Below are positions 9,937-46,973 of a DNA stretch of 64,000 nucleotides, piece by piece. Source of the DNA: Thermoplasmatota archaeon (GTDB taxonomy: Archaea; Thermoplasmatota; E2; DHVEG-1). Location: the NCBI GenBank assembly GCA_029939595.1, contig JAOZSQ010000001.1:261722-325721 (forward strand). The letters run 5' to 3'. The notes under the pieces were generated by a model that worked only from the letters and a program-made list of their open reading frames with translations, was not told the origin of the DNA and made no database searches. The position numbers and the translations under genes were made by a program. The stretch's first letter is position 1. Each line of letters starts with the position of its first letter.

Positions 9937-10871
9937 TTAGTTTTAAACTGTTTTTAGAGAAGCGGTCCCATGCGGATCAGAACCCAAAGATATCGGTGGT
10001 TGACGCATTAGAGAAATATAAGGATGATCCTGATGTATATGTTCATTTTTCAAAAAGGGATACTATGTTGGAAATCAATCTAAAGGCAGAACAAGGGACA
10101 CCTTTAGGTATTTACGTATACCCATTAAAAGAGATTTTTGATGAATTTGTGAATATGGATAGAACTAATTTAAAGGAATTTGGTACTTCTAAACGATATG
10201 TTTGGGTGTTAAGATCAAAGAATAATAAAAAGTTTATAAAGGATCTTCATAAAGAGTATAAACAGAAAAATTTAAATAGAGATTTCAGGATATTAAAGAA
10301 GAAGTATGGTGATGAGCTTTTGAAAAAAGGAAGTAAGTTTGATATAGAAGAAGAAAAGAAAAATCTAAAAAAACATAATAGAGAAGCTGTTCCGCCTAAA
10401 TTGTTTTTTGCTTATATGTATACGATAACCAACACATTAAAAGGTGATAAATCATATCCTGCTTTGTGGAATAAAATGTTAGTAAAGGATTTGGGTTATA
10501 CTGGAATTGTGGATAAATCTGGAAAGGGTTATATTCATGAGTTTGAGAAATTGCAAGGAGTGTTTTTGACAACTAATGCTTATACTGTTTTAGATGTGGT
10601 AGAAAATAAATCATATGAGACTAGAGAAATAAAAACATTTGATGATTTGGTAAAAAATAGTGCTAATATTTCTACACCTAGATTGATAAAGAGTGCGGGT
10701 GAGAATAATGATGATTATTTTTGGGTTAATGGTTCTGAACATATTCGTGGTGAGTTGGGTTCGGGTATTTCATCTTTTAAAATTAAAAGGAAAATATTGG
10801 GCGATTTGAATACTTTAAGTGATAGGATACGTAGTAGAAGTATTGAATTAAGAAATAAAGGTAAAAAATGA
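9933..10871 (+). CDS. CTS-tagged cargo protein, 'KISVVDALEKY' family, member 1
   Basis: Real start at the ATG (MISFKLFLEKRSHADQNPKISVVDALEKYKDDPD), overlapping the terL stop as ATGA. Family motifs GIYVYPLKEI, YVWVLRSKN..FIKDLHK, WNKMLVKDLGYTGIVDKSGKGYIHE. Confidence 0.7.
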   Translation: MISFKLFLEKRSHADQNPKISVVDALEKYKDDPDVYVHFSKRDTMLEINLKAEQGTPLGIYVYPLKEIFDEFVNMDRTNLKEFGTSKRYVWVLRSKNNKKFIKDLHKEYKQKNLNRDFRILKKKYGDELLKKGSKFDIEEEKKNLKKHNREAVPPKLFFAYMYTITNTLKGDKSYPALWNKMLVKDLGYTGIVDKSGKGYIHEFEKLQGVFLTTNAYTVLDVVENKSYETREIKTFDDLVKNSANISTPRLIKSAGENNDDYFWVNGSEHIRGELGSGISSFKIKRKILGDLNTLSDRIRSRSIELRNKGKK

Positions 10872-12070
10872 TTAGTTTCAGATTATTTTTAGAGAAGCGG
10901 TCCCATGCGGATCAGAACCCGAAGATATCGGTGGTAGATGCGTTGGAGAAGTACAAAGACGATCCTGATATTTATTTGCGTTTTTTTAATGGGGATAAAC
11001 TTGAGAGAAATCCCATGAGTGTTGATGCAACTCCTTATGGAATTTATGTTTTTGCCATTGATAAAATTTGGGATATATTTTTAAATAATAAATTGCGGTA
11101 TTTTACTTTAGATAAAGTAGCAGTTTTGCGTTCAAAAAATAAAGATAAATTTATAAAAGATCTTCATATAGAGTATCAACGAAAAGATTTAAATAGAGAT
11201 TTCAGTATAATAAAGAAGAAGTATGGTGATGAATTTTTGAAAAAAGGAACTAGTTTTGATGAAATTGTGGACGATGCAAAATTACCATCAGTTAAATATT
11301 CTCAAAAAGGAAAAAAAGCACCAGGAATATTTTTTAGAGTGATGTTTGCAATAAGTAATGTATTATCTAAAGATAATTATACAGGTATTTGGAATAAAAT
11401 ATTAGTAAATGATTTGGGTTATAGAGGAATGGTTGATAGATCTAATAAAGGATATATTTTCAGTGAACCATTTCAGGGCGTATTTTTGACAAATGATGGA
11501 TATGATGTTGTTGAGATATTGGAGAATAAAAGATATACTATTACTTTAATAGAAAAATGGGATGATTTAGAAAAATTGAATGAAGATCAAATATTGGAAA
11601 TAATAGGATCTATAAAAAGTTATTATGATTATGTTTGGTTAGGGTTTCATCCAGGCACAACAATAGGAATATATAAAGTATCAACAAATATTTTTAAAAT
11701 AAATCCACAAAAAACAGAAAAATTTTTGCTTAATTTTTTTTATTTTTCAAAGATGGTTGATATTTTGTTTAAAAAGGATAAATTTGAATGTATGAATGTA
11801 ACAAATAATTTTTGGGCGAGGCTTCTGGATGCAATATTTGCTAGAAAGGGTGGACATTACAGTGCTTTGGATTATGATATAAAAAGACATTTGGATTCTA
11901 AGAGGTTTAATATATTATTTGCATATAAACCAGATTTAAATAAAACAACTAAAAAAATAATGAAATTTATGTTTGGAGATAATGTAAAGAAGTATAGTCG
12001 TTTTGTTAAAAAAGAAATAGAAAATAGACTTACAAAGGGCGATTATTATAGTGAATATGGTAAAAAATGA
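10868..12070 (+). CDS. CTS-tagged cargo protein, family member 2
   Basis: MISFRLFLEKRSHADQNPKISVVDALEKYKDDPD. The 5-prime ~50 nt are near-identical to the other family members. Confidence 0.7.
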   Translation: MISFRLFLEKRSHADQNPKISVVDALEKYKDDPDIYLRFFNGDKLERNPMSVDATPYGIYVFAIDKIWDIFLNNKLRYFTLDKVAVLRSKNKDKFIKDLHIEYQRKDLNRDFSIIKKKYGDEFLKKGTSFDEIVDDAKLPSVKYSQKGKKAPGIFFRVMFAISNVLSKDNYTGIWNKILVNDLGYRGMVDRSNKGYIFSEPFQGVFLTNDGYDVVEILENKRYTITLIEKWDDLEKLNEDQILEIIGSIKSYYDYVWLGFHPGTTIGIYKVSTNIFKINPQKTEKFLLNFFYFSKMVDILFKKDKFECMNVTNNFWARLLDAIFARKGGHYSALDYDIKRHLDSKRFNILFAYKPDLNKTTKKIMKFMFGDNVKKYSRFVKKEIENRLTKGDYYSEYGKK

Positions 12071-12960
12071 TTAGTTTCAGATTATTTTTAGAGAAGCGGT
12101 CCCATGCGGATCAGAACCCAAAGATATCGGTGGTAGATGCGTTGGATAAGTATAAGGATGATCCTGATGTATATGTTCATTTTTCAGAGATAGAGAAATT
12201 AGGTATGAATCCACAAGTTTCAAATCAGGAATCGCCTTTAGGTGTTTATGTGTACCCATTAAAAGAGATTTGGGATGAATTTGTAGAGAATGATAAAACT
12301 CGTTTAGGTTCTTTTATTGGACGTTTTTATGTTTGGGTTTTGAGATCAAAAAATAAGAGTAAATTTATAAAGGATCTACACAAAAATTATAAGCGAAAGG
12401 ATTTAGATAGAGACATGCTTATTATAAAAAGAAAGTATGGAAAGCAACTTGTGGATAAAGGAACAAGTTTTGATGAAGTTATAAAAAAACAAAGGGATTT
12501 CTATTTGAAGAAACGAATAGCTCCTTCCAAACTTTTTTTTATTTATATGCATGGAATATGTAAAAAATTGAAACCTGATAATCAAGAAAGTATTTGGAAT
12601 AAAATGTTAGTAAAGGATTTGGGTTATACTGGAATTGTGGATAGATCTGGTAAAAGTTATATTCATCGTGCTGAGAAGATACAAGGAGTATTTTTAACTA
12701 ATGATTCTTATGATGTTATAACAATGTTAGAAAATAAAAGATATGAAGTTAAAAAAGTAACCACATTCAAAGATTTAGAATATGCGTTGGATAATGATTA
12801 TATTTTTGTTAAGAATATATTGGATGCGTTAAAAAAAAGAAAAAACAATAATGAATATGTTTGGGTTCGTGCTGAAAAAGATAAATTTTCATCTTATAAA
12901 ATTTCAAAGAAATTATTGAATAAAAAATTAGAATGGTTGGAGGATTATGATTGGGTTTAA
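12067..12960 (+). CDS. CTS-tagged cargo protein, family member 3
   Basis: The same N-terminal 30 aa and family motifs. Confidence 0.7.
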   Translation: MISFRLFLEKRSHADQNPKISVVDALDKYKDDPDVYVHFSEIEKLGMNPQVSNQESPLGVYVYPLKEIWDEFVENDKTRLGSFIGRFYVWVLRSKNKSKFIKDLHKNYKRKDLDRDMLIIKRKYGKQLVDKGTSFDEVIKKQRDFYLKKRIAPSKLFFIYMHGICKKLKPDNQESIWNKMLVKDLGYTGIVDRSGKSYIHRAEKIQGVFLTNDSYDVITMLENKRYEVKKVTTFKDLEYALDNDYIFVKNILDALKKRKNNNEYVWVRAEKDKFSSYKISKKLLNKKLEWLEDYDWV

Positions 12961-14110
12961 ATTATTTTTAGAGAAGCGGTCCCATGCGGATCAGAACCCA
13001 AAGATATCGGTGGTTGAGGCATTAGAACCGTTTAAAAATAATCCTGATATTTATATCCACTATTCTAAGATCCCAAAAATAGGGATAAATCCCAAGGCAC
13101 CATCTAGTAATGATACTCCTAATGGAATTTATTGTTATCCGGTAAGAGAGTGTTGGGATATGATAGAAAATAACAAATTGGAATATGCGGGTGATTTTCC
13201 CTATGTATGGGTGTTAAAATCAAAGAATAGGAACTTCATTAAGGATTTGCATAAGGATTATAAGGAATCGGATTTGAAGAGGGATAAACGTACATTAATG
13301 ATGAGATATGGCGATGTGGTAGAAAGAAGATTTGCGTCTTGGTATCCAAGAACAACTATGGATAAAATTATTTGGAGAAAAGCTGGTGGTCCGCATCCGG
13401 CTAGAATTCTTTTTAGAACAACCGAATTGTTTGCAAAATTGATTAGTAATTCTGATACCAAATACCAACATTTATGGAATGCGTTGTTGAGAAAGGATTT
13501 AGATTATTCTGGTTTTGCTGATAAATCGGGTGAGGGTCATATTCATGAAGGTGAGAAAATACAAGCAGTATTTTTAGATACAAAAGCATATACCATAGTG
13601 GATATGTTAGAAAACAAAACATATGAAACGATAGTTCCAAAGTCGTTTGATGAATTGCAAGAGTTTATTGATGAAGGTGAACTTAATTTGAGAGATGTTT
13701 TAATAGGTTTATTACATCCTGATAAAACAGGCAGGGTTAGAATTGACAATGATTATTATGCTGCTTCTGAGGATGAGATAAAGATATATTCTATTCCAGT
13801 TAGAATGTTCCAACGTAACCCGAAGGATGTTGCTAAGTTTTTAGTAGCAAATTGGGATGAGGATAATGTGTTGTTGCCTTTATTTGGTGATAATATGATT
13901 ATTAACAAGATTAATGTTGGTGACGATTTCTATATGGATATGGTTAAAGAGAGATTTTCAACTCAAACATTGAGAGATTGGAAAAAGATATATGACAAGA
14001 ATACAACCAGAGAGGTGGCAGAGAAGATATTGGATGCTGTGTTCAAGAGCCATTGGAAGAAGGTAGATGGGCTGGTTGATAGGGTTGTTAAGTTGTTGGA
14101 GGAAGTATGA
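12947..14110 (+). CDS. CTS-tagged cargo protein, family member 4
   Basis: MIGFKLFLEKRSHADQNPKISVVEALEPFKNNPD, with the family motifs. Confidence 0.7.
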   Translation: MIGFKLFLEKRSHADQNPKISVVEALEPFKNNPDIYIHYSKIPKIGINPKAPSSNDTPNGIYCYPVRECWDMIENNKLEYAGDFPYVWVLKSKNRNFIKDLHKDYKESDLKRDKRTLMMRYGDVVERRFASWYPRTTMDKIIWRKAGGPHPARILFRTTELFAKLISNSDTKYQHLWNALLRKDLDYSGFADKSGEGHIHEGEKIQAVFLDTKAYTIVDMLENKTYETIVPKSFDELQEFIDEGELNLRDVLIGLLHPDKTGRVRIDNDYYAASEDEIKIYSIPVRMFQRNPKDVAKFLVANWDEDNVLLPLFGDNMIINKINVGDDFYMDMVKERFSTQTLRDWKKIYDKNTTREVAEKILDAVFKSHWKKVDGLVDRVVKLLEEV

Positions 14111-15258
14111 TTAAATTGCGTGATATATTAAAAAGACGAGATAAGGAATTTCCTTCATTTACTGTTGTTGAAGGTTTGAAGGAATATAAGGATCAAGGGG
14201 ATGTGTATATACATTTTGGAAAGGTAAGAAGACTAAAGTTAAATCCGATGGTTTATGAAGAGCAAGGTTCTCCTGTTGGTATATATTTTTATGTTATTAA
14301 AGAATATTGGAAATCTATAGAAGGTGGACAAATTGATTATGCCCAAGACAGACCATATGCCTTTGTTTTGAAACCAAAAAATAAAAGAGGTCTTGTTTCG
14401 GATACTGCAACATATTCAAATAAAAAATTGGTTGCTGATACTAAAAAACTAGAAAAAAAATATGGTAAAAGGTTATTAAAAATATATTTGGATAAGAAAT
14501 CATCTTTACAGACGATTGAAGATCTTTTTGAAAATTACAGATATTATTATGGTGAAGAATCTTTTAAATGTTCAAGGAAACCTATTGCAGAACTGTTTCG
14601 CATAACAAGTGGTATAGCCAGAGATTTATATCGCCCATCTGGTACGAAACATCTTTTTGGTTGGAATGAAGTATTAAATAGTTTAGGTTATAATGGGTTT
14701 GTTGATAAGTCTGGTTTGGGTTGTATTCATAAGTTTGAAATGCATCAGGGATATTTTATTAATGAGAATGTTTATGATACTATTAAAACTTTTAAGATTG
14801 TACCAGGAGAGTATATTAATGTTAAAAATTTGGAACAATTAGAGCCGTATCTTGCCTCTGGTAAGCTTGATTTAAATGACATACTTAATCAAATGGCATT
14901 TTTTGGAGAAGAAAATTATGTAAGAGTTGATACCAGAATGTACGGAGAGACCCGAATATCTTTTATGATTAATAAAAAAGTGTTTAAAAATAATAGAAAC
15001 AATAAAGTTGACTATTTTTTAAATAAATTTTGGCATTTGTCTAGCAATGAAATGGTTAGAGTTATTGATGATTTTAATGTTGGTAATGAATTTTGGAAAA
15101 AAGTAATTCCAAGAGAATGTAATTGGTTATTTAAAAAACGAGAAAATTTTAGTAAAGAAGAATTTGTTGAAAAATGTTTTGAGGATTTTTTTGGGGATGA
15201 GAAATATAGAAAAAAATATTTCAAACAAGTAAAGAAGGTTATTGAGGAAATACCATGA
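14107..15258 (+). CDS. family member 5 (divergent N-terminus, CTS degenerate)
   Basis: MIKLRDILKRRDKEFPSFTVVEGLKEYKDQGDVYIHF. Retains the family core (VGIYFYVIKE, GYNGFVDKSGLGCIHKFE) but lacks the FL-x-E CTS. Confidence 0.65.
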   Translation: MIKLRDILKRRDKEFPSFTVVEGLKEYKDQGDVYIHFGKVRRLKLNPMVYEEQGSPVGIYFYVIKEYWKSIEGGQIDYAQDRPYAFVLKPKNKRGLVSDTATYSNKKLVADTKKLEKKYGKRLLKIYLDKKSSLQTIEDLFENYRYYYGEESFKCSRKPIAELFRITSGIARDLYRPSGTKHLFGWNEVLNSLGYNGFVDKSGLGCIHKFEMHQGYFINENVYDTIKTFKIVPGEYINVKNLEQLEPYLASGKLDLNDILNQMAFFGEENYVRVDTRMYGETRISFMINKKVFKNNRNNKVDYFLNKFWHLSSNEMVRVIDDFNVGNEFWKKVIPRECNWLFKKRENFSKEEFVEKCFEDFFGDEKYRKKYFKQVKKVIEEIP

Positions 15259-27661: not shown

Positions 27662-29073
27662 TTAGTTTCAAACAATATTTAATTGAGGAAAAAATGAAAG
27701 ATTGGAATCAGTATGTCAATTCTATACCTTCATTAAAGAAGGCTATAGAAGTTATGAAAATACTTGAGCCTTATGGAAGGATTTATATTGTGGGTGGTGC
27801 GGTTCGTGATTTAATCACTGGTGAAAAGGTGCCGGATGATATTGACTTGGCTTGTAATATTCCAATGGAAAAGATTGAATCTCTCTTCAAAACCCACGAT
27901 ATCGGAAAAAATAAGGATTTTGGTATTATAGTGATTGTTTATAAAGGCGAAGACATGGAAATAGCCCAATTCCGATCTGATGGAACCTACTCGGATGGAA
28001 GAAGACCGGATTCCATTAAAATTGAAATGTCATTTGAACAGGATGCCGAGAGAAGGGATTTCACAATAAACTCAATGGCAGTGGATGCCGATGGTAATAT
28101 CATTGATTATTTTGATGGAAAGAAGGATGTCAAAAACAAAGTAATCCGAACCGTTGGAGACCCAAATAAACGCTTCTCAGAGGATTACTTGAGAATGCTT
28201 AGAGCAGTACGTTTTTCGTCCAGAATGGGATTTGAGATGGCTCCAGAGACCTTAGAAGCGGTTAAAATTAATGCCGGTTACATAAAGGGTATTGCTGTTG
28301 AGAGAGTTGTTAAAGAACTTATGAAAATGGCCGACCAATCTGGTGACAAATTTGCAGATGCAATCCTTAAACTAAAGGAATCGGGATTGTTAAAATATAT
28401 TCTTCCTGAAGTGTTGAAGATGGACGAGTTTGAGCATCATGCAGAATACCATCCAGAAGGGAATGTATGGGAACATACGCTGGCTGCGTTACGAGTCAAT
28501 AAAATAACAGATCCCATACACAATTTGGCTATTCTCCTCCATGATATAGGAAAGATAGTAACCTACAAAAAGGAAGGTGATAAGATAACATATTTGCAAC
28601 ATGCGAAGAAAGGTATTGATCTTATTGATATGATTGCAGACCGATTGAAGTTGGATACCAAAACAAGGCAAACTTTGAAATTTGCTTGTGAGCATCATAT
28701 GAAGATGCATGATTTTGTTAAAATGTCTCCATCTAAGATCATGAAATTGGTTAATGATGATAATTGGGGTGTACTTCATAATGTTTCTCATTGTGATGAT
28801 AAATGTCGGCTTCAGTTGTACGATAAAAAGCATTGGGATGCCATAACTGATAAAATTGAGAAATTATCTGATAAATATAAAAAAGAGTCTGGAAAAGATC
28901 CGTTGAAAAAGATTGTTAATGGGCAGTTAGTTATGAAAACTAGAGGGATCAAGCCAGGAAAAGAGGTTGGTGTGGTTATTAATGCGACAATGGATTGGAT
29001 AATTAATAATGGTGTGAAATTAGATGATACTAAGAAGATCACCGATTTTGTTAAGAATTATAAAATAGCATGA
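27658..29073 (+). CDS. CTS-tagged CCA-adding / poly(A)-polymerase-family nucleotidyltransferase with HD domain
   Basis: Internal Met (MISFKQYLIEE). GGAVRD...DIDL head motifs, RRDFTINSMA, and a C-terminal HD region (LLHDIGK). Confidence 0.8.
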   Translation: MISFKQYLIEEKMKDWNQYVNSIPSLKKAIEVMKILEPYGRIYIVGGAVRDLITGEKVPDDIDLACNIPMEKIESLFKTHDIGKNKDFGIIVIVYKGEDMEIAQFRSDGTYSDGRRPDSIKIEMSFEQDAERRDFTINSMAVDADGNIIDYFDGKKDVKNKVIRTVGDPNKRFSEDYLRMLRAVRFSSRMGFEMAPETLEAVKINAGYIKGIAVERVVKELMKMADQSGDKFADAILKLKESGLLKYILPEVLKMDEFEHHAEYHPEGNVWEHTLAALRVNKITDPIHNLAILLHDIGKIVTYKKEGDKITYLQHAKKGIDLIDMIADRLKLDTKTRQTLKFACEHHMKMHDFVKMSPSKIMKLVNDDNWGVLHNVSHCDDKCRLQLYDKKHWDAITDKIEKLSDKYKKESGKDPLKKIVNGQLVMKTRGIKPGKEVGVVINATMDWIINNGVKLDDTKKITDFVKNYKIA

Positions 29074-29690
29074 AGTTTATATTAGTATTGTTGTTTGTTG
29101 TTCCTTGTATTGTTTCAGGCGAATCAAAATATTTGTTTCCTTGGGACTTGTCACAGTGGACATGCTTGGGGTATATTAATCAGATAAAGAATACGAAAAC
29201 TTATAAAACTCTTCAAAAATTATTAAAAAAGAGATCCCATAAATTTTATAAGTCGGCATCTCTTTCTGATCTTAAACTAATTCCAACGAAATATACTGTT
29301 AAATATCCATACCATAAGATACGTATTGATGCATATTCATCTTTGGTTAGGATGATACAAGATTCGCATGATAAGGGTTCCCCATTATATGTCTCATCGG
29401 CTTATCGGTCTCCTTATCTCCAGAATTTATTGTGGAAGAATAGATTGAATGCCGAATATGATGTATCAATGGATGCTTTATCAAACTATGTTAGAACCGC
29501 ATATAAAACGGCTCCACCATGTTATTCGGAACATGCAACAGGTTTGGCTGTTGATTTTTTGAAAACAAATAATTGGTTGCGTGATAATGCAAAGAAATAT
29601 GGTTGGAAACAGTCGTTTGATGGTTCAGGAGATGTAACTAACATTATGAAAGAAAGTTGGCATTATGCTTATATAAAGGAGAAATCATGA
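29070..29690 (+). CDS. secreted M15 (VanY-like) D,D- / L-Ala-D-Glu peptidase, endolysin candidate
   Basis: Signal peptide MKFILVLLFVVPCIVSG. SAYRSPYLQ and SEHATGLAVDF are the zinc-ligand motifs of peptidase M15. Confidence 0.7.
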   Translation: MKFILVLLFVVPCIVSGESKYLFPWDLSQWTCLGYINQIKNTKTYKTLQKLLKKRSHKFYKSASLSDLKLIPTKYTVKYPYHKIRIDAYSSLVRMIQDSHDKGSPLYVSSAYRSPYLQNLLWKNRLNAEYDVSMDALSNYVRTAYKTAPPCYSEHATGLAVDFLKTNNWLRDNAKKYGWKQSFDGSGDVTNIMKESWHYAYIKEKS

Positions 29691-30388
29691 AAAAGTATAT
29701 ACTTTTTCTAGGAATTTTATTATTTACAATGCCTGTCATTGCCGATGAATTGGTGCTTGTTTCAAATCCTTGGCCACCATATATATTTGGAAAGATGGGT
29801 TCATCTGATGTTACTGGAATAACAATAGGTCAATATAATAAAATATTTAAGAAGATGAAGATCAAGGTAAAATATATGATGATACCTTGGCGTAGAGCTT
29901 TACAAGAGATAAAAGAAGGATATGCTGATGGAGCAATAATTTTACAACAGAATTCTGAAAGATCAAAATATATGGTGTTTACTAATATTGTAATGGTTGA
30001 AAACACTTTTATGTTTTATTCCAAAAGGAAATATCCTGGGGGTATGGAATGGAAAACACCGTTGGATTTGGTTGGGTATCGTATAGGTTTGGTACGGGGG
30101 TATTCATACGGACCTATTCAGGCAATGATAGATACGGGATTACCTTTACAAATTGAAATGGTAAGTAAAGAAACACAGTTATTGCCCATGTTAGTTAGGG
30201 GAAATATTGATATATTTCCTTATTCAGAGATGATAGCAAAATATGCTTTTAAATTAAAAGGTATTGATTATGTGGTACATGCTTCAAAGGAAGTGTATAA
30301 AGCATATTATCGTATGGGAATTTCAAAGAAGTCAAAATGGAAAAAAATGATCCCTCAATTTAACAAGATTTTAAAAGAGGTTTTATGA
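29687..30388 (+). CDS. secreted substrate-binding-protein family 3 (SBP_bac_3)-like protein
   Basis: The Met at 29687 has an AAGGAG site. Signal peptide MKKYILFLGILLFTMPVIA. Paralog of the 39784 gene. Confidence 0.5.
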   Translation: MKKYILFLGILLFTMPVIADELVLVSNPWPPYIFGKMGSSDVTGITIGQYNKIFKKMKIKVKYMMIPWRRALQEIKEGYADGAIILQQNSERSKYMVFTNIVMVENTFMFYSKRKYPGGMEWKTPLDLVGYRIGLVRGYSYGPIQAMIDTGLPLQIEMVSKETQLLPMLVRGNIDIFPYSEMIAKYAFKLKGIDYVVHASKEVYKAYYRMGISKKSKWKKMIPQFNKILKEVL

Positions 30389-30852
30389 AAAAGTTTTTGA
30401 TTTTTTTACTTATTGCTTTTTTCACAACAACCGTTTTTGCAGAGAGATATTATATCAGATCAAGAACGGCTCATCTTTTATTGCGACCAAAAATTGGTTC
30501 TAAAAAAGTATTGAAATTGAAAAAGGGTGATTCGGTTGAGTTAATAAAGAGAAAGAAAGTATGGGTTTTTTTGAGACATGGAAAAAAACAAGGCTGGTTA
30601 AATAGGATGTTAATCTCAAAACGGAAACCAAAATTAAGAAAGTCTATTTTTTCTAATAAGGTTGATATTTCCAGTACAGCAAGAAGAAGAGCTTCTTCAT
30701 TCACGAGTGCGGCTGCTTCCAGAGGACTTGTAGCCGATCAAGAAACTATGAAAAATCTACCAACAGCGAATTATGCTGCTTTGCACAAAATTGAATCTTT
30801 GGTGATTGATGAAGAGGAAGCTGTTGAATTTTTAATGTATGAAGGAGATTGA
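30385..30852 (+). CDS. secreted SH3b-domain protein
   Basis: Signal peptide, then YYIRSRTAHLLLRPKIGSKKVLKLKKGDSVELIKRKKVWVFLRHGKKQGWL, a typical bacterial SH3 pattern. Basic C-terminus. Confidence 0.5.
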   Translation: MKKFLIFLLIAFFTTTVFAERYYIRSRTAHLLLRPKIGSKKVLKLKKGDSVELIKRKKVWVFLRHGKKQGWLNRMLISKRKPKLRKSIFSNKVDISSTARRRASSFTSAAASRGLVADQETMKNLPTANYAALHKIESLVIDEEEAVEFLMYEGD

Positions 30853-37722: not shown

Positions 37723-38142
37723 ATGGCAACATTTAAAGAATATCTTATTGAAGCAGATAAGAAATTAGAAAAGCTTGTTTGGGATTTTAGAAAAAAAGAA
37801 GAAAAAACTTGGGAATGGAAAACTGATAAACAAGCCATGAAAGGAATGTGTCAAGATATTACAAGACGTTTAGAAAAATATTTGAAAAAAAATGGGTATA
37901 AAGCAAATAGGGTTCCAGGTTATTATAAAGATGTATCGGATGATTTTGAACCAGAAGGAGAAAATTGGGATTTTGATGATTGGGAAGATTATAGAGAAAA
38001 TTTTGATAATAGTTGGACCCATTGGTGGGTCTTGGTAAATAATCGTATTATTGTGGATGTGACAGCAGATCAGTTTCATCTTGGAGAAGAAGATGAATAT
38101 CGGGTGGTTATAACGAGGAAGGGAGACAGAGATTACGATTAA
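37723..38142 (+). CDS. CTS-tagged cargo protein
   Basis: MATFKEYLIEADK. Confidence 0.6.
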   Translation: MATFKEYLIEADKKLEKLVWDFRKKEEKTWEWKTDKQAMKGMCQDITRRLEKYLKKNGYKANRVPGYYKDVSDDFEPEGENWDFDDWEDYRENFDNSWTHWWVLVNNRIIVDVTADQFHLGEEDEYRVVITRKGDRDYD

Positions 38143-38190: not shown

Positions 38191-38898
38191 ATGAAATTAG
38201 TTCTTTACCCATGTGGATTTTTAGTTAGTTATTATGATGGATTTATTAATGAATTAAAAAATAATGGAATTGTTTTTAATTCTTATCTTGGGCTTTCTGG
38301 TGGCGCAATAAGCTCAGTTACATCCTGTTTGGATATTGATTCCAAAAAAATTTGGAATGATATTGAATGTGATCTCTGGCAGGACCAGAAACCAGGATTT
38401 GTTAGCCGGTTCTTTAAACGAGAATTTAAAACACGAATAGTCGGTAACACAGCCGAACAAGAAATTCTTGATAAAATAAATGGGAAGGTAGTTATTGTCG
38501 CTGCTAAAGTACCCTCCTTTGATCTTACCTATTTTACACATTTTGAAACTGTTGATGATCTGAGAAGAAAAATGATGGCATCATCAACTTTGCCATATCT
38601 AATGTACCCATTTCCAGCCAAAATAAAAGATGATTATTATGTGGATGGTTGGTTTGGTTTGTTCAATAGATTGAATTTTCATATAAATAGTGAAAAGGCA
38701 ATTATTTTAAGGGCTAGTCCAGGATTTAAAGTGAGAATGTGTAAAATCGGAGATCATATTTGGAGAGTTAAAATACTGCTTCCAAAAATGATTTGGAAAA
38801 TATTTAGACCAACTAAAGAAATCATGTTAGATTGGTTTGAGGAAGGTAAAATGGCGGGACAACAATTTTTAGATAAATATTATATGGAGATTAAATGA
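38191..38898 (+). CDS. patatin-like phospholipase candidate
   Basis: GLSGGA (GxSxG nucleophile) and YYVDGWFG (DGx catalytic Asp). GGAGGATAGAATG ribosome-binding site. Confidence 0.35.
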   Translation: MKLVLYPCGFLVSYYDGFINELKNNGIVFNSYLGLSGGAISSVTSCLDIDSKKIWNDIECDLWQDQKPGFVSRFFKREFKTRIVGNTAEQEILDKINGKVVIVAAKVPSFDLTYFTHFETVDDLRRKMMASSTLPYLMYPFPAKIKDDYYVDGWFGLFNRLNFHINSEKAIILRASPGFKVRMCKIGDHIWRVKILLPKMIWKIFRPTKEIMLDWFEEGKMAGQQFLDKYYMEIK

Positions 38899-39437
38899 AA
38901 TTAATGTTATTGAAAACAGAGTTGGATGAATTGCTCTCTTTTATGGAGAATGAAGCAACAACTTTGGGTATTGGACGAGAAGATATTGATAAAATAGAAG
39001 TAGAAACAGCAGCTAATATGCGGTTTACTTTTCCTAGTCATACTAGTCAGTTAGAATTAATTAGACGTGTTACCAGACAGGTTGCTTCTAGTTTAAGTTT
39101 TACTGAGGAAGCTTTAGATGATATTGGGTTAGCTATTGATGAGGCTTGTGCCAATATTATAAATCATTCGTATACAGAATCAAGAAGTGGATTGATTACA
39201 GTTGATTTTGAATTGGATCAATCTAAACTTGTTATGAGATTAATTGATAAAGGTGAAGCAGGACAAACTTTTAATCCAGAATTACTCAATCCAGTGGATA
39301 AAGAAAAATATCTTAAAGTTCTGACTAAGGGCGGATTGGGTGTGTATCTTGTAAAGAAAATTATGGATGAAGTTGAATATACAGTTTGTCCAGGTATTTC
39401 TAATTGTTTAACAATGGTTAAATATACAGGTAGGTAG
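38895..39437 (+). CDS. RsbW/SpoIIAB-like anti-sigma factor serine kinase (GHKL ATPase)
   Basis: N-box DEACANIINHSY, G-box GGLGVYLVKKIMDEV. About 180 aa, typical of partner-switching kinases. Confidence 0.6.
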   Translation: MKLMLLKTELDELLSFMENEATTLGIGREDIDKIEVETAANMRFTFPSHTSQLELIRRVTRQVASSLSFTEEALDDIGLAIDEACANIINHSYTESRSGLITVDFELDQSKLVMRLIDKGEAGQTFNPELLNPVDKEKYLKVLTKGGLGVYLVKKIMDEVEYTVCPGISNCLTMVKYTGR

Positions 39438-39439
39438 TT

Positions 39440-39784
39440 ATGAAAACGCTTGAAATTATCACTAAACATGGAAATAATGTGTTAGTTATTGTGTTAAAAG
39501 GTCTTTTAAATGCTGATACTAGTCCAGGATTGGAAAAGACACTTATTGATGTTGTGGAGCAAGAATCCAAACCTCAAATTTTGTTGGATATGAAAGAATT
39601 AACTTATATTAGTAGTGCTGGTATTGGTTGTTTTATTGGAGTGATTAAAAGAATTAGAGTTAAACAAGGAGATCTTAGATTTTGTTCTCTTGATTCTAAA
39701 GTTATGCGAGTTTTTAATCTTTTAGATATGGCCGATTTTTTTCAGTTTTTTGAAACACAAGAAGAAGGAGTGAAAAGTTTTTAA
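39440..39784 (+). CDS. STAS-domain anti-sigma-factor antagonist (RsbV/SpoIIAA-like)
   Basis: VLKGLLNADTSPGLEKTL...ILLDMKELTYISSAGIG. 114 aa. A Ser in ISSAG is a possible phospho-acceptor. Confidence 0.6.
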   Translation: MKTLEIITKHGNNVLVIVLKGLLNADTSPGLEKTLIDVVEQESKPQILLDMKELTYISSAGIGCFIGVIKRIRVKQGDLRFCSLDSKVMRVFNLLDMADFFQFFETQEEGVKSF

Positions 39785-40533
39785 TGAAAAAGTTAATATT
39801 GTTTTTAATTGTGTTTTGTTTTATAGCAACAAACTGTTTTTCTGAAAATTTGTTTACAGTAACAGCAGAACCATATCCACCTTATGTCGGTCCAAAACTG
39901 AAAAATAATGGATGGACTTGGGTGGTTGCTAAAACTGCTTTGGAGAGGGTTGGATATAAAGCAAAATTGAAATATTTACCTTGGGCTAGAGCACTAATGA
40001 CAACTAAAGCAGGTAAAATAGATGGATTATTTCCCGCATTCTTTACAGTGGAAAGAACAAAAACATATTTATATTCAGTGCCGATAGCAGAAGCAAGAAC
40101 AGGTTTTTTCAAACTTAAAAAACGAACAGATATTGTTTTCAATGGCAATCTGAGAACAATGACAAAATATAGAATTGGAGTGGGTAGAGGTTATGCTACA
40201 AGTCCTGAATTTGACAATGCAACCTATCTAAAGAAAAGACTACAAATCAAATCAATACAAAGTTTGAAAATGCTTTGGAAAGGTAGATTGGATTTGGCAA
40301 CAGGAAGTGAATTAGTTGATGGTTATAATCTAAAACAACTAGAACCAAAATATCCTGGAATATCAAAAAAAATAATGTTTGTGGAACCACCTCTTACTAT
40401 TCAGTATTGTCATATGGCAGTATCAAAGAATGCACCCAACGCAGCACAAAAATTGGAAGATTTTAATATAGGTATGAGAATGATAATGTTGGACGGTACT
40501 TATATGAAAATTTTTAAGAAATATAATAAGTAG
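39784..40533 (+). CDS. secreted SBP_bac_3-like substrate-binding protein, paralog of 29687 gene
   Basis: Signal peptide MKKLILFLIVFCFIATNCFS, and EPYPPYVGPK parallels NPWPPYIFGK. Confidence 0.5.
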   Translation: MKKLILFLIVFCFIATNCFSENLFTVTAEPYPPYVGPKLKNNGWTWVVAKTALERVGYKAKLKYLPWARALMTTKAGKIDGLFPAFFTVERTKTYLYSVPIAEARTGFFKLKKRTDIVFNGNLRTMTKYRIGVGRGYATSPEFDNATYLKKRLQIKSIQSLKMLWKGRLDLATGSELVDGYNLKQLEPKYPGISKKIMFVEPPLTIQYCHMAVSKNAPNAAQKLEDFNIGMRMIMLDGTYMKIFKKYNK

Positions 40534-40592: not shown

Positions 40593-40985
40593 TTATTTCT
40601 TTTTACTATTCTGTTTACATAGTTTGGTTAGTTCTTTGGTACACTTTTTTTGATTTTTTGACTTTTGACAAGCTTTCTTGGCTTTTTGACTACAAGAACC
40701 TTTATAAGCACCATAAACGACACCTGTTACAGTCCCAATAGCAAGACCATACATACTACCAACTATAGCACCTAATCCCCCTGAAAGTTTCACATCATTT
40801 TTTCCTTGTCCAGATAACTTGGATACCGCTGCCATTCCCAAACCAGTGCTAACTGCACCAACACTTGAACCTATAGTACCTCCACTGGCTCCAGAAGCAA
40901 TTGCACTTCCTAGTTTGGAACTCTTGATGTGTTTGATACTTCCTGGTTTGGCTTTCTCTGTTAAATAACCTCTTCTATTAATCAT
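40593..40985 (-). CDS. glycine-zipper membrane protein with basic Cys-containing C-terminus
   Basis: Runs of GxxxG/SxxxG repeats (GASGGTIGSSVGAVSTGLGMAAV...GGLGAIVGSMYGLAIGTVTGVVYGAY). AGGAGAGATTATG ribosome-binding site. Confidence 0.55.
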   Translation of the reverse strand: MINRRGYLTEKAKPGSIKHIKSSKLGSAIASGASGGTIGSSVGAVSTGLGMAAVSKLSGQGKNDVKLSGGLGAIVGSMYGLAIGTVTGVVYGAYKGSCSQKAKKACQKSKNQKKCTKELTKLCKQNSKKK

Positions 40986-40993
40986 AATCTCTC

Positions 40994-41395
40994 CTATTTA
41001 TTTTTTTTTAAAGCGTTTATCATCGCTCGGTCTACCATATCCTTCCCACGATTTTTCAGTTTAGGTGGTTTGAAATCTCCCAAATTTGGATATTTATTGG
41101 CGATTTGTTTTCCTTGTTTCCTTGTTGTGAATGTTTCAAAATTACAGTCATCCATACTTGCTTGTTTTATACCATCACATACTTGTTCTTTTATCCAATC
41201 CGCATTTTTCATGCATTTGGTGTAGTTCTTTTCAACTTGTTTTATACATTTTTTCGTTTCTATTTTGTTTCGCCTATTTTTAAGTTTTGTGTTTACCTTG
41301 GAACCAAATTCTTTGACTTTTGTAACACCCATTTTTAATGCCGATGCAATTCCTTCATCTAACCTATTTTGTTTTATATGACATCTATTAATCAT
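40994..41395 (-). CDS. basic Lys/Cys-rich protein
   Basis: The second Met was chosen (MINRCHIKQ) because the RBS-plus-start string AGGAGAGATTATGATTAATAG duplicates that of the 40593 gene. Confidence 0.5.
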   Translation of the reverse strand: MINRCHIKQNRLDEGIASALKMGVTKVKEFGSKVNTKLKNRRNKIETKKCIKQVEKNYTKCMKNADWIKEQVCDGIKQASMDDCNFETFTTRKQGKQIANKYPNLGDFKPPKLKNRGKDMVDRAMINALKKNK

Positions 41396-41503
41396 AATCT
41401 CTCCTATAAAAAATATATTTATCATTATTTATATAGTCTCTTCATAAATAATAGAAAATCAGATAACACTATTTTTGGAACTCGTCTTTTTGACGATGCT
41501 TTT

Positions 41504-41589: not shown

Positions 41590-43848
41590 ATGGCGTTTAG
41601 TTTATCCCCTAGTGTTGACGTAACTGAAAAGGATCTAAGTGTATCAGTAGCAAATTTGCCTTCTTCAAAAACTGCAATGGTTGTTAAAGCAGCAACCGGT
41701 GAGGCTTTGAAAATTGTTCAGGTAACTAGCGTAGGTGACTTGGAAACTATATTCGGTTTCCCAACAAATTTTAACTATAAGGACTGGTTCAATGCATGGA
41801 ACTTCCTACAATATGCAAATTCACTTTATTGTGTTCGTCCATTGTCAACAAAAGCCCATAACTGTGCAGTTGCACTTTCAGGTGGGACCGGACAAGCTGA
41901 CGCTCCGGCTGCAATAGTTGACGCAGATGGTAATCCAACATTAGACGATAAAGGTGTTCAAACATACGGTGCAGCAAAATTAGGTACTGGTATGAAAGTT
42001 AATGAAGCAGTTAGTTGTGGAAAATTGTATAATTCAGATGTAGCAGAATTGAGACTCAATGCATTAGCAGAAGTCCCTTCCCTCACTAAAACATTCTTTG
42101 ACGTATCTATTGATGGCGTTTCAGGTGAAATTACTTCTAAAATTGTAAGTAACTTGGCAGGAAAAGAAATTAAATACGATAATAAAGAATACTATATTGA
42201 AGAAAATGTTTGGGAAAAAGCAGGTATTACAGAAGAATTGATGGATTCAGAAGGTGAAGTTACTTTAATTAAAAATTTTAAAGCAGTTAAAGTAGACCAA
42301 AGAACCGATGACGAAAAAACAGCAGAAAAAGATCCTTATTATACCAAAAAAGTGGTTATTGCTAAAGTATCAGCTTCTAAAAAGCTTCTTCTTGAAATGA
42401 CTGCCGATAATCCAGCACTTCCTGTTATGAGTAAATACGGCGTGACAGGCGCAGAAGTTAAAGAAGATCCAACAGGCTCATTTAAAGTTGCCGGTGCTGT
42501 CGCACCTAAATTGGTTCTCTATAACAGATATGTTACAAATGAACAAGATGTCGCAGTTTCAGTATGTTCATCAAAAGATTCTTGGAATAAACCTCTGTAC
42601 CTCGGAACAGCAGTTAAATTCTCAGACTTCTTTGACTATGAACCAGAATGGGATCAAGGACAATTCGTTATGATCGTGTTTAAGAAAAACCCACAAGGTA
42701 ACTACGAAAATAAAGAAGAATGGTTGCTCTCATATAACGTGAAAGGTAGAGATCATAATAATAGTAACATCTTCGCTGAAGAAGTTATTAAAAATAAATC
42801 AAAATACCTCTACGTTAAAGTAGGAACCAACGGCGATCCAGTTAATACCTCTTGTAACGAAATGATTGAACTTCAACATTCAACTTTTGAATCAGTTACT
42901 CCAAGAGAAGCTGACGTGTTTCCAACCATTTCAACTGAAGCTTATAAAAAATCAGCTATCGTTAACGCATGTGAACTCTTCTCAGATCCAGATTCGTTTG
43001 ATATTAATATCCTCGTGCAACCAGCAGAAGCACCTAATAAAATGTCAAACCTAGCTGAAACTAGAAAAGACTGTGTGGCTGTTATCGGACCATACGAACA
43101 TGATAATTTACTCGGTAAATCAAACGGCGAAGCTACTGCCTATATGACAGGAAAATACGGAACAGTTGCAGGTAAACCCGAATCTAAAGTGTATTCAGCA
43201 TTCGGTACATACTCAGCAGTATACGGTAATATGAAATATCAATACGATAAATACAACGATCTTAATCGTTGGGTTCCAGTATTGGGTGACGTTGCAGGTC
43301 TATACGCAGCAACAGATAAAGATTTAGACCCTTGGTGGGCACCAGCAGGTCTCTCCAGAGGTAAAATTAAGAATTGTATCAAACTAGCTTTCAATCCTAA
43401 TAAAGCTCATAGAGATGAATTGTATTATAATGCAATCAACCCAATTATGGGTGTGCCAGGAGAAGGAACAGCTATCGTTTGGGGTCAGAAAACAGCTACC
43501 GCCAAACCTTCAGCTTTCAACAGATTGAACGTAAGACGCTTGATGATCACGATTGAAAAATCAGTGGCTACATCAGCTAGATACTTCTTGTTTGAATTTA
43601 ACGATTCATTTACTAGAAACTTCTTCAAAGGTATGGTTGACCCATATCTCGGTGGAATCCAAAGTAGACGTGGATTGTACGATTATCTGGTTGTCTGTGA
43701 CGACTCTAACAATACACCAGAAATTATTGATCAGAATGGCTTGTGTTTGGATATATATGTTAAACCTACGAAAGTAGCTGAATTTATCAAAATCCAAGCG
43801 GTGGTCGTTAAAACTGGGGCGAGCTTTTCCGAAGCCATAGGAGCCTAA
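41590..43848 (+). CDS. tail sheath protein (T4 gp18-like)
   Basis: The N-terminal ~85 aa parallel T4 gp18 (…IVQVTSVGDLETIFG…AWNFLQYANSLYCVRPL against …QIKQVTNEVDLVNTFG…AMNFLQYGNDLRVVR). 752 aa. Confidence 0.85.
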   Translation: MAFSLSPSVDVTEKDLSVSVANLPSSKTAMVVKAATGEALKIVQVTSVGDLETIFGFPTNFNYKDWFNAWNFLQYANSLYCVRPLSTKAHNCAVALSGGTGQADAPAAIVDADGNPTLDDKGVQTYGAAKLGTGMKVNEAVSCGKLYNSDVAELRLNALAEVPSLTKTFFDVSIDGVSGEITSKIVSNLAGKEIKYDNKEYYIEENVWEKAGITEELMDSEGEVTLIKNFKAVKVDQRTDDEKTAEKDPYYTKKVVIAKVSASKKLLLEMTADNPALPVMSKYGVTGAEVKEDPTGSFKVAGAVAPKLVLYNRYVTNEQDVAVSVCSSKDSWNKPLYLGTAVKFSDFFDYEPEWDQGQFVMIVFKKNPQGNYENKEEWLLSYNVKGRDHNNSNIFAEEVIKNKSKYLYVKVGTNGDPVNTSCNEMIELQHSTFESVTPREADVFPTISTEAYKKSAIVNACELFSDPDSFDINILVQPAEAPNKMSNLAETRKDCVAVIGPYEHDNLLGKSNGEATAYMTGKYGTVAGKPESKVYSAFGTYSAVYGNMKYQYDKYNDLNRWVPVLGDVAGLYAATDKDLDPWWAPAGLSRGKIKNCIKLAFNPNKAHRDELYYNAINPIMGVPGEGTAIVWGQKTATAKPSAFNRLNVRRLMITIEKSVATSARYFLFEFNDSFTRNFFKGMVDPYLGGIQSRRGLYDYLVVCDDSNNTPEIIDQNGLCLDIYVKPTKVAEFIKIQAVVVKTGASFSEAIGA

Positions 43849-46190: not shown

Positions 46191-46973
46191 ATGAAGAGTT
46201 TCAAGCAATTTTTATTAGAGACGAGGGATTCTCAGCGTGAGATAAGGGCTATTGCTGATGAATTTTTTGATAGTTTTGTTGATCACATAGAGAGTTATCC
46301 GAAGGAGCAGGTTATTTTACCCAAACCGGAGGATGCATTTGATCATATGTTTTTAGATATGAAACGGATAGGTGATTATATTCGGATTGGAAGGTATTCG
46401 GTGTTAAAGGATTTTTTAAGGGATGCTTCCAGGCATATGCAGGTGATTATCACATCAATTGAGTCAGGTCGTTTTTTACCTAGTGGTAGTGCTGGTACAT
46501 TTGTTTTTCCTAAGAGTCAATATAAGCAGATGAAGGATACTGTATTGGTTGTTGGTGTACCTATTAAAGCGATTCAATTTGTTATTCAGATTTTCAAGAC
46601 CCAGGAAGATCCCAATAAGGCGTTTGGTAAGATAAAGGACCGTTGGAAAGTAGCTACTGAGAAGATATCAAGGGGAACTTTTATACATGAGTTAACTCAT
46701 GCATATGATTATTATGTATCTGAGGGTCGGTTTACTGATGCGGAGGGCATAGTCAAATCTGGAGATGATGAAGCAGGTTATTATGCTAGTCAGCATGAGG
46801 TTAATGCTAGGTATTCTGATACGATAGCTCAGTTGGATGGTGTCAAGGGCGATTTAGACAAGTATGATTATATTAAGCGATTTATGGAGATGTTTGTTGG
46901 TTGGGATGTATTGGATTATTCTCAACAGAAGAGGTTAATAAAGAGAGCCACAATGGAGTGGTATGAGAGGTAG
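46191..46973 (+). CDS. CTS-tagged HExxH metallopeptidase-like protein
   Basis: MKSFKQFLLETRD; FIHELTHAYDYY. Confidence 0.5.
   Translation: MKSFKQFLLETRDSQREIRAIADEFFDSFVDHIESYPKEQVILPKPEDAFDHMFLDMKRIGDYIRIGRYSVLKDFLRDASRHMQVIITSIESGRFLPSGSAGTFVFPKSQYKQMKDTVLVVGVPIKAIQFVIQIFKTQEDPNKAFGKIKDRWKVATEKISRGTFIHELTHAYDYYVSEGRFTDAEGIVKSGDDEAGYYASQHEVNARYSDTIAQLDGVKGDLDKYDYIKRFMEMFVGWDVLDYSQQKRLIKRATMEWYER

Follow-up and report, generated by a model that had tools for sequence, protein, structure and literature searches.

Many bacteria govern their stress responses, biofilm formation, secretion and development through partner-switching modules made of a kinase and a STAS protein. In these modules a GHKL serine kinase phosphorylates a conserved serine on helix 2 of a single-domain STAS protein. 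Why would a giant phage carry such a pair? We consider this question for two adjacent genes in a 64,000-nucleotide stretch of contig JAOZSQ010000001.1, referred to throughout as the window. An earlier note on this DNA had proposed that they encode a phage partner switch, with takeover of host sigma-factor or stress signalling, or a self-contained sensor-effector circuit, as possible roles. On balance, and by no wide measure of belief, we favour a different account. The kinase and STAS genes would be a captured pair, lacking phosphatase and histidine kinase, that plugs into a homologous pathway of the host. The two genes are:

38895..39437, plus strand: RsbW-type GHKL serine protein kinase of 180 amino acids (HATPase_c_2 profile, RsbW structural match)
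39440..39784, plus strand: single-domain STAS protein of 114 amino acids, anti-sigma-antagonist superfamily (PF01740, TIGR00377)

The pair is phage-encoded, as the earlier note had it: genes for a tail sheath, T4 gp15 and a T4-type terminase all lie in the window. The exact kinase protein is recorded on a 426,929-bp contig, as are the exact patatin-like and solute-binding proteins encoded by its neighbours. Given this contig and the T4-type structural genes, the source of the window is a giant, AT-rich (33% GC) T4-like phage.

Identity and bacterial origin of the kinase–STAS pair

Profile searches agree with the RsbW/SpoIIAB-like identity first proposed for the kinase. It matched HATPase_c_2 (PF13581) over positions 1–127 of 127 (4.2e-26, 91.9 bits against a cutoff of 27.4). 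The best NCBIfam models were RsbW (2.8e-25) and SpoIIAB, all scoring below their equivalog cutoffs (NF003144, 88.6 against 145; TIGR01924, 81.9 against 155; TIGR01925, 50.4 against 135). B. subtilis RsbW (6m36, 1.1e-16) was the best PDB match, followed by SpoIIAB, and the ATP-site residues align with those of 6m36. Residues E83/N87 of the N-box, D118/G120 of G1 and G146/G147/G149 of G2 are invariant in 29 homologs and kept in the phage kinase, which also carries a family-specific N-terminal extension of ~45 amino acids.

The second gene is likewise borne out as encoding a canonical STAS antagonist. Its product scored 64.4 bits with PF01740 (9.3e-18; cutoff 22.6), no other domain being found in its 114 amino acids, and 71.2 bits with the anti-sigma antagonist model TIGR00377 (cutoff 53.45). 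It fell far below the SpoIIAA equivalog cutoff. PDB matches included SpoIIAA (1th8_B, 7.6e-10) and RsbV (6m36_B). Ser59, at the start of helix 2, aligns with the acceptor serine of SpoIIAA (DSSG) and RsbV (DSTG) and is the predicted phospho-acceptor. The motif around it, Y-I-S-S-A-G-I-G-C-F-I-G, is invariant in the phage protein and six bacterial orthologs.

Close homologs of the kinase number more than 60, all on bacterial-looking contigs. Those with names come from Desulfobacterales, Desulfobacteraceae or "Deltaproteobacteria" metagenome-assembled genomes (MAGs). The closest (75–80% identical) are flanked by genes for FtsQ, DnaJ, YicC, molybdopterin oxidoreductase and lipoate ligase. A STAS gene lies immediately downstream of each bacterial kinase gene. 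Across these orthologs identity to the phage proteins is 54–80% for the kinase and 47–65% for STAS, and the loci rank alike by either measure; at L008, L010 and L011 the kinases are 80, 76 and 67% identical and the adjacent STAS proteins 64, 64 and 59%. DNA similarity between phage and bacteria (69–71%) is confined to the two genes. Since the two genes agree in their best matches, which are neighbours in each locus and keep the kinase–STAS order, the kinase and STAS genes were, on this evidence, captured as one unit by an ancestor of the phage from a Desulfobacterota-type bacterium. The direction follows from a neighbour-joining tree that places the phage kinase deep inside the bacterial family, as a lone leaf with the P0002–P0005 clade as its sister group.

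Synonymous sites are saturated between the phage pair and the bacterial copies, and nonsynonymous divergence (dN) is 0.18–0.31. This saturation of synonymous divergence (dS) made dN/dS (omega) non-computable against the closest homologs; where it could be computed, omega was ~0.14 for the kinase and 0.09–0.13 for STAS. GC content at third codon positions is 0.17–0.19 in the phage pair (0.19 in the kinase), compared with 0.29–0.37 in the closest bacterial copies. By these measures the capture was not recent, and the pair is ameliorated to the AT-rich composition of the phage. Low omega, saturated dS, intact motifs and recoded composition together indicate long-term selection for a function in the phage. 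We hold the identity and bacterial origin of the pair, taken alone, with strong confidence.

About ten distinct bacterial ortholog loci were examined, among them L002, L004, L005, L008, L010 and L011. All have the same fixed core: a membrane PP2C phosphatase (CHASE5 and/or HAMP with SpoIIE), the kinase, STAS and then a histidine kinase, either GAF-HisKA-HATPase_c or a hybrid with REC and Hpt. A REC-HD-GYP protein comes next in some. The phage kinase is an ortholog of the kinase in these PP2C-kinase-STAS-GAF-histidine kinase operons. Phage and bacteria have in common the kinase–STAS order, the N-terminal kinase extension, and the catalytic and acceptor motifs. They differ in that the phage has the middle two genes only, with a patatin-fold gene at the PP2C position, a gene for a secreted solute-binding protein at the histidine kinase position, and a recoded composition. 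The gene order, the reverse of rsbV-rsbW as the earlier note remarked, is not peculiar to the phage locus: kinase-then-STAS is the native order in every bacterial source operon examined, so the phage simply inherited it.

In operons closest to the phage pair, a gene for a second HATPase_c_2 paralog separates STAS from the GAF histidine kinase (L008, 8983–9522; L011, 7667–8218). It is 41% identical to the phage kinase, and the phage has the first type only. Two RsbW-like kinases per STAS protein are reminiscent of the RsbT/RsbW duality.

Missing partners and possible targets

A Pfam scan of 70 window open reading frames (ORFs) gave no SpoIIE, HisKA or Sigma70 domain, and the bacterial PP2C and GAF-histidine kinase proteins, used as tblastn queries, had no match in the window. 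Of the switch, these 64 kb hold only the kinase and its substrate; the phosphatase that would reset STAS and the presumed output are both missing from them. The PP2C may lie elsewhere on the contig or come from the host.

The absence of a sigma factor bears on the takeover proposed in the earlier note, by which the pair would be a true anti-sigma/anti-anti-sigma system and would reprogram transcription by sequestering a sigma factor of host or phage (sigma-B/sigma-F-like or T4-type late). Its best characterised relatives are RsbW, SpoIIAB, RsbV and SpoIIAA. The pair has the same two folds as Bacillus RsbW-RsbV (sigma-B) and SpoIIAB-SpoIIAA (sigma-F), and the same chemistry would be expected of it. 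Phages are known to target sigma factors, and a survey of huge phages mentions AsiA-like proteins, as the only anti-sigma proteins (PMC7162821). T4 AsiA and other phage anti-sigma proteins resemble the pair in that a phage regulator takes over a host regulatory node; AsiA differs from it in having an unrelated fold and mechanism, in not being a kinase and in having no STAS partner.

Other observations count against a sigma target. No sigma factor was found in the ~10 source operons examined, all of which contain a histidine kinase, and no sigma gene accompanies the pair in the window. Scores lie far under the RsbW, SpoIIAB and SpoIIAA equivalog cutoffs. The pair also departs from the Bacillus modules in its reversed gene order and in a kinase with ~45 additional N-terminal amino acids and a longer ATP-lid region. 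In addition, many Gram-negative partner switches are sigma-independent, a subject reviewed in PMC8256260. We therefore set aside sigma-factor takeover as improbable.

Regulation of an adjacent immune effector in the manner of CapK/CapS is a further reading, to which we give almost no credence. CapK is like anti-sigma kinases and CapS like STAS antagonists, and the two occur in kinase-then-STAS order beside immune effectors, including those of cyclic oligonucleotide-based antiphage signalling (CBASS) (PMC13373217). CapK is an HTH-STAS-GHKL protein and CapS a STAS-wHTH protein, where HTH and wHTH stand for helix-turn-helix and its winged form (PMC13373217). CapK/CapS identity was rejected, the phage proteins being single-domain (180 and 114 amino acids) with no HTH or wHTH. 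Moreover, their orthologs sit in PP2C/histidine kinase signalling operons, not immune operons, and PADLOC gave no matches.

Kinase–STAS switches need not act on a sigma factor. Pseudomonas HsbR/HsbA, Vibrio fischeri SypE/SypA and Bordetella BtrW/BtrV are wired to two-component, Hpt or cyclic di-GMP (c-di-GMP)-type signalling instead. The bacterial orthologs resemble these systems by gene context (hybrid histidine kinase with Hpt, REC-HD-GYP). By this analogy, a sigma factor is a less likely output of the bacterial operons than two-component or c-di-GMP signalling. HsbR and SypE combine kinase and PP2C with a receiver domain in one fused protein. The kinase described here stands alone, and PP2C is a separate membrane protein in the bacteria and absent from the phage window.

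We propose the following model for the captured pair. In the bacterial source operon, PP2C would strip phosphate from STAS and the kinase would restore it, with the GAF or hybrid histidine kinase as the likely output. During infection, the phage kinase and STAS may engage the homologous pathway of the host, as suggested by 64–80% identity and by the invariant surroundings of the acceptor serine and ATP site. Surplus kinase would keep host and phage STAS phosphorylated and/or tie up the other binding partner of the kinase. The phage STAS may buffer or time kinase activity and could itself be acted on by host PP2C. Overall, the envelope-sensing PP2C input of the host would lose its coupling to the two-component/histidine kinase or c-di-GMP output. 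Taken by itself, this hijack mechanism is tentative, and we believe it to a somewhat less than even degree.

Flanking genes and phage context

The pair is flanked by two further genes:

38191..38898, plus strand: divergent patatin-fold protein of 235 amino acids (borderline Pfam Patatin match, remote homologs, AlphaFold2 fold)
39784..40533, plus strand: orphan SBP_bac_3 periplasmic solute-binding protein (SBP) of 249 amino acids, predicted to be secreted (PF00497, N-terminus by inspection)

All four plus-strand ORFs that the earlier note described between 38191 and 40533 are present at exactly those positions, and the motifs that it quoted (EACANIINHSY, GGLGVYLVKKIMDEV, LDMKELTYISSAGIG, GLSGGA and DGW) were all found in the translations. 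It had also described every junction as coupled by ATGA or TAATG. ATGA joins the patatin-fold and kinase genes and TAATG the STAS and SBP genes; kinase and STAS are instead separated by a 2-nt spacer (TAG-tt-ATG). A GGAG-type ribosome-binding site can be read before each gene. A gap of 48 nt precedes the block, and downstream it ends at a convergent gene pair. Overlaps of 4 nt occur in 18 of the 50 consecutive gene pairs of the window, and 42 of the 50 lie within 10 nt. As tight overlaps are generic in this genome, they link the patatin-fold and SBP genes to the pair only weakly.

The patatin-like protein fell just short of Pfam Patatin (PF01734; 27.4 bits, cutoff 27.7). A word-indexed search of 5.8 billion clustered proteins matched it only to itself. 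Exhaustive HMMER searching gave 30 remote homologs, and 25 of the 27 aligned match Pfam Patatin (best 2.5e-24). AlphaFold2 modelling from the single sequence reached a pLDDT of 31; the 27-sequence alignment was used instead and gave 87.7, with a pTM of 0.88. In this model Ser36 occupies the nucleophile elbow, between strand 31–35 and helix 37–46. The top 15 Foldseek matches are all patatin-like lipases, headed by PlpD, CapV, VipD and ExoU. With these the modelled protein has its fold in common (TM-score up to 0.66, for PlpD), and GxSxG and DG are present. It is unlike them in its compact length of 235 amino acids, its loss of the oxyanion loop and basic residue, its 11–15% identity to solved structures, and a context without cyclic-nucleotide sensing or secretion.

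The dyad motifs G-L-S36-G-G and D152-G-W are kept; within the family S36 and D152 are at least 90% conserved, and G38 and G153 invariant. The glycine-rich oxyanion loop, G-G-x-x-R in homologs (e.g. SGGAWRG), reads Y-P-C-G-F-L in the phage protein, and the arginine is gone. Because this loop is degenerate, catalytic competence is uncertain. Of the patatin-like lipase first proposed upstream of the pair, the fold and Ser/Asp dyad stand (remote homologs, AlphaFold2/Foldseek). With the homolog P0075 as query, IMG/VR yielded only a giant-virus MAG contig, and the phage collection only a jumbo Acinetobacter phage. No patatin homolog was found near any bacterial kinase–STAS locus examined, and the patatin-fold gene is probably cargo unrelated to the pair.

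These results speak to the self-contained circuit raised in the earlier note. Spelled out, a periplasmic ligand would be sensed by the SBP and the signal passed on through kinase and STAS to a regulated effector, the patatin-like lipase (for instance in membrane remodelling, lysis timing or superinfection exclusion). The four genes do form a contiguous, same-strand, tightly coupled block with clear bounds on either side, and signalling-controlled patatin effectors exist, CapV being one among the fold matches. They are also among the few genes in this stretch without an N-terminal tag (M-I-S-F-K-Q-F-L-x-E), which the earlier note had correctly reported as absent from all four and which is real in about half of the listed ORFs. 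The start/stop coupling on which the circuit rests is the generic kind noted above, and the patatin homolog never occurs near the bacterial pair, so there is no co-occurrence. With the membrane PP2C missing, no transmembrane link joins a periplasmic SBP to a cytoplasmic pair. The degenerate oxyanion loop and the empty PADLOC result also count against the circuit, which we regard as quite improbable.

The SBP3-like secreted protein placed directly downstream of the pair proved to be there. It matched SBP_bac_3 (PF00497) at 3.2e-11 (43.5 bits, cutoff 26.4), and its N-terminus, MKKLILFLIVFCFIATNCFS, consists of MKK and a 14-residue hydrophobic stretch. By inspection this is a predicted Sec-type signal peptide, and the protein is presumably secreted. 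The best SBP homolog (57% identical) sits in histidine kinase-REC-REC_SpoIIE-SBP-SBP clusters without ATP-binding cassette (ABC) transporter genes. A 35% identical homolog lies directly upstream of the PP2C-kinase-STAS operon in L005, and another SBP_bac_3 gene follows that operon in L004. No ABC permease or ATPase partner was found in the window or beside the closest homologs. Association of the SBP with the pair thus appears to have some comparative support. Because orphan SBP_bac_3 genes recur beside such operons, we propose that the secreted SBP may feed the sensor of this host pathway, or influence it through its periplasmic domain.

Alternatively, the genes may be independent host-derived cargo ("morons"), with separate roles or none at present, the SBP serving nutrient uptake with a host ABC transporter and the pair being a passenger. 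Host-like genes build up in giant phages. Another SBP_bac_3 gene, unrelated to that of the cluster, lies at 29657–30388 among genes for other secreted proteins, and the three host-like genes of the locus differ in best donor and identity (80%, 64% and 57%). Passenger status fits poorly with saturated dS at low dN (omega 0.09–0.14), full catalytic motifs and ameliorated codons, which are marks of selection rather than decay; nutrient uptake fits poorly with closest SBP homologs that occur in signalling clusters lacking ABC transporter genes. We give this alternative a low probability, and continue to favour a captured pair that acts on a host pathway.

Scans for sigma-70-type promoters and terminators around the cluster gave results at chance level only. 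The T4-type late-promoter motif TATAAATA is marginally enriched overall (19 found, 12.4 expected). It occurs just before the sheath gene (41504, 41557), before ORF 49817 and before the minus-strand genes (41426). There is none in the gap upstream of the four-gene cluster, a weak hint that its transcription is shared with the block of non-structural genes upstream.

The cluster lies ~1 kb upstream of the tail-sheath gene (41590–43848; PHROG 23, 2e-91), whose relatives come from T4-like myoviruses and reach 40% identity at most. LR756504.1 (636 kb) is the only phage with DNA similarity; the two have a single upstream ORF in common (37723–38142), and synteny was uninformative as a guide. By Pfam matches the window also encodes a DNA ligase, a CCA/poly(A) polymerase, VanY, a Tad6 homolog, a GNAT acetyltransferase and a LEM-3-like GIY-YIG protein. 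The match to Tad6, a type I Thoeris inhibitor (7.7e-19), is in one ORF outside 28895–49437 and suggests that the phage carries an anti-defence gene. A VanY D-Ala-D-Ala carboxypeptidase with a signal peptide is encoded at 29070–29690, and a further signal-peptide ORF lies at 30385–30852. The second SBP_bac_3 protein also has a signal peptide and is 28% identical to that of the cluster. Several phage proteins, it seems, may be sent to the host periplasm.

The N-terminal tag, called a packaging tag in the earlier note, takes the form M-[IRK]-[SGT]-F-[KR]-x-[FY]-L-x-E by strict pattern in 29 of 65 listed ORFs, with several near-misses. Variants include MISFKQFLSE, MRFKQFLQE and MISFRLFLEK. Tagged ORFs fall within 1899–38142 and at 46191 (e.g. 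starts at 6863, 10868, 12067, 17439, 23919, 33398, 34892, 35697, 37047 and 37723). Structural genes and secreted proteins lack the tag, as do the four cluster genes. It may serve as a signal for targeting or cleavage, or instead reflect a conserved element at the level of DNA or of translation initiation. Inside the tagged block, at 9921–15258, tandem paralogous genes have near-identical N-terminal regions (MISFRLFLEKRSHADQNPKISVVDALEKYKDDPD...) and look like a recently expanded gene family.

Two small convergent ORFs of no assigned family, both starting MINR, occupy the minus strand at 40593–41425. One encodes 130 amino acids rich in Gly, Ser and Ala with a Lys/Cys-rich tail, the other 143 Lys/Cys-rich amino acids. 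No other minus-strand genes interrupt the long plus-strand run around them, and TATAAATA lies immediately upstream of them (41426–41433, minus strand). GC skew is uniform at about +0.3 over the plus-strand block and falls to ~0 at 40–44 kb, where these genes and the sheath gene are located.

Precedents and meaning of the captured pair

Precedents were sought by tblastn in 50,697 phage records. Four kinase matches and one STAS match were returned, all weak and all in four UNVERIFIED fragments (OR846974.1, OR845010.1, OR850167.1 and MT837088.1) labelled Listeria phage, Staphylococcus phage or 'Bacteriophage sp.'. Three fragments were examined. Those from Listeria and Staphylococcus carry the host rsbU-rsbV-rsbW-sigB(-rsbX) genes, and the faecal fragment carries Mur ligase and tetratricopeptide-repeat (TPR) genes. 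The fragments appear to be host DNA from phage preparations or wrongly binned contigs, and the matches were rejected as precedents, representing host sigB operons or other bacterial genes. In IMG/VR neither the single kinase nor the alignment of its family yielded a match, by a pattern-limited method that is weak for distant relatives. PHROGs holds no family for the kinase or STAS, and no phage-encoded partner switch was found in the literature searched. As proteins, neither the kinase nor STAS stands out within its known family; the unusual thing is that a giant phage carries the two as a stripped-down pair.

Several points weigh against action of the pair on a host pathway. Cross-talk with host proteins is only predicted, from sequence identity. 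The window covers only 64 kb of a ~427-kb contig, and a PP2C, sigma factor or other target may lie elsewhere on it. No paper was found that describes the PP2C-kinase-STAS-GAF-histidine kinase operon type, the output of which is uncharacterised. A kinase without a phosphatase should phosphorylate all of the STAS protein, so a pure "kinase overdose" leaves retention of STAS unexplained. Finally, adjacency of the SBP is limited to the kinase–STAS loci L004 and L005 and to the contigs of the best SBP homolog. The most far-reaching version is that the virus has domesticated an input-less half-switch as molecular mimics that seize the envelope-sensing PP2C/histidine kinase/c-di-GMP pathway of the host, with the SBP perhaps acting on the same sensor. 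In this full form we consider the idea doubtful.

Biochemical novelty is modest, since both proteins are ordinary family members. The 80% identity of the kinase to a bacterial ortholog provides a lead to the host of the phage. The phage pair is a naturally minimised, two-gene version of its source and would be a convenient tool for dissecting the PP2C-kinase-STAS-GAF-histidine kinase operon family. If the proposed interaction with the host holds, it would offer a handle on an uncharacterised signalling operon widespread in sulfate-reducing Desulfobacterota. Cross-talk of this kind would mean that phages manipulate host serine-phosphorylation signalling by mimicry, beyond the sigma-factor, nucleotide and metabolic routes. 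Should the pair prove to act as mimics, this would be the first viral takeover of partner switching by serine phosphorylation.

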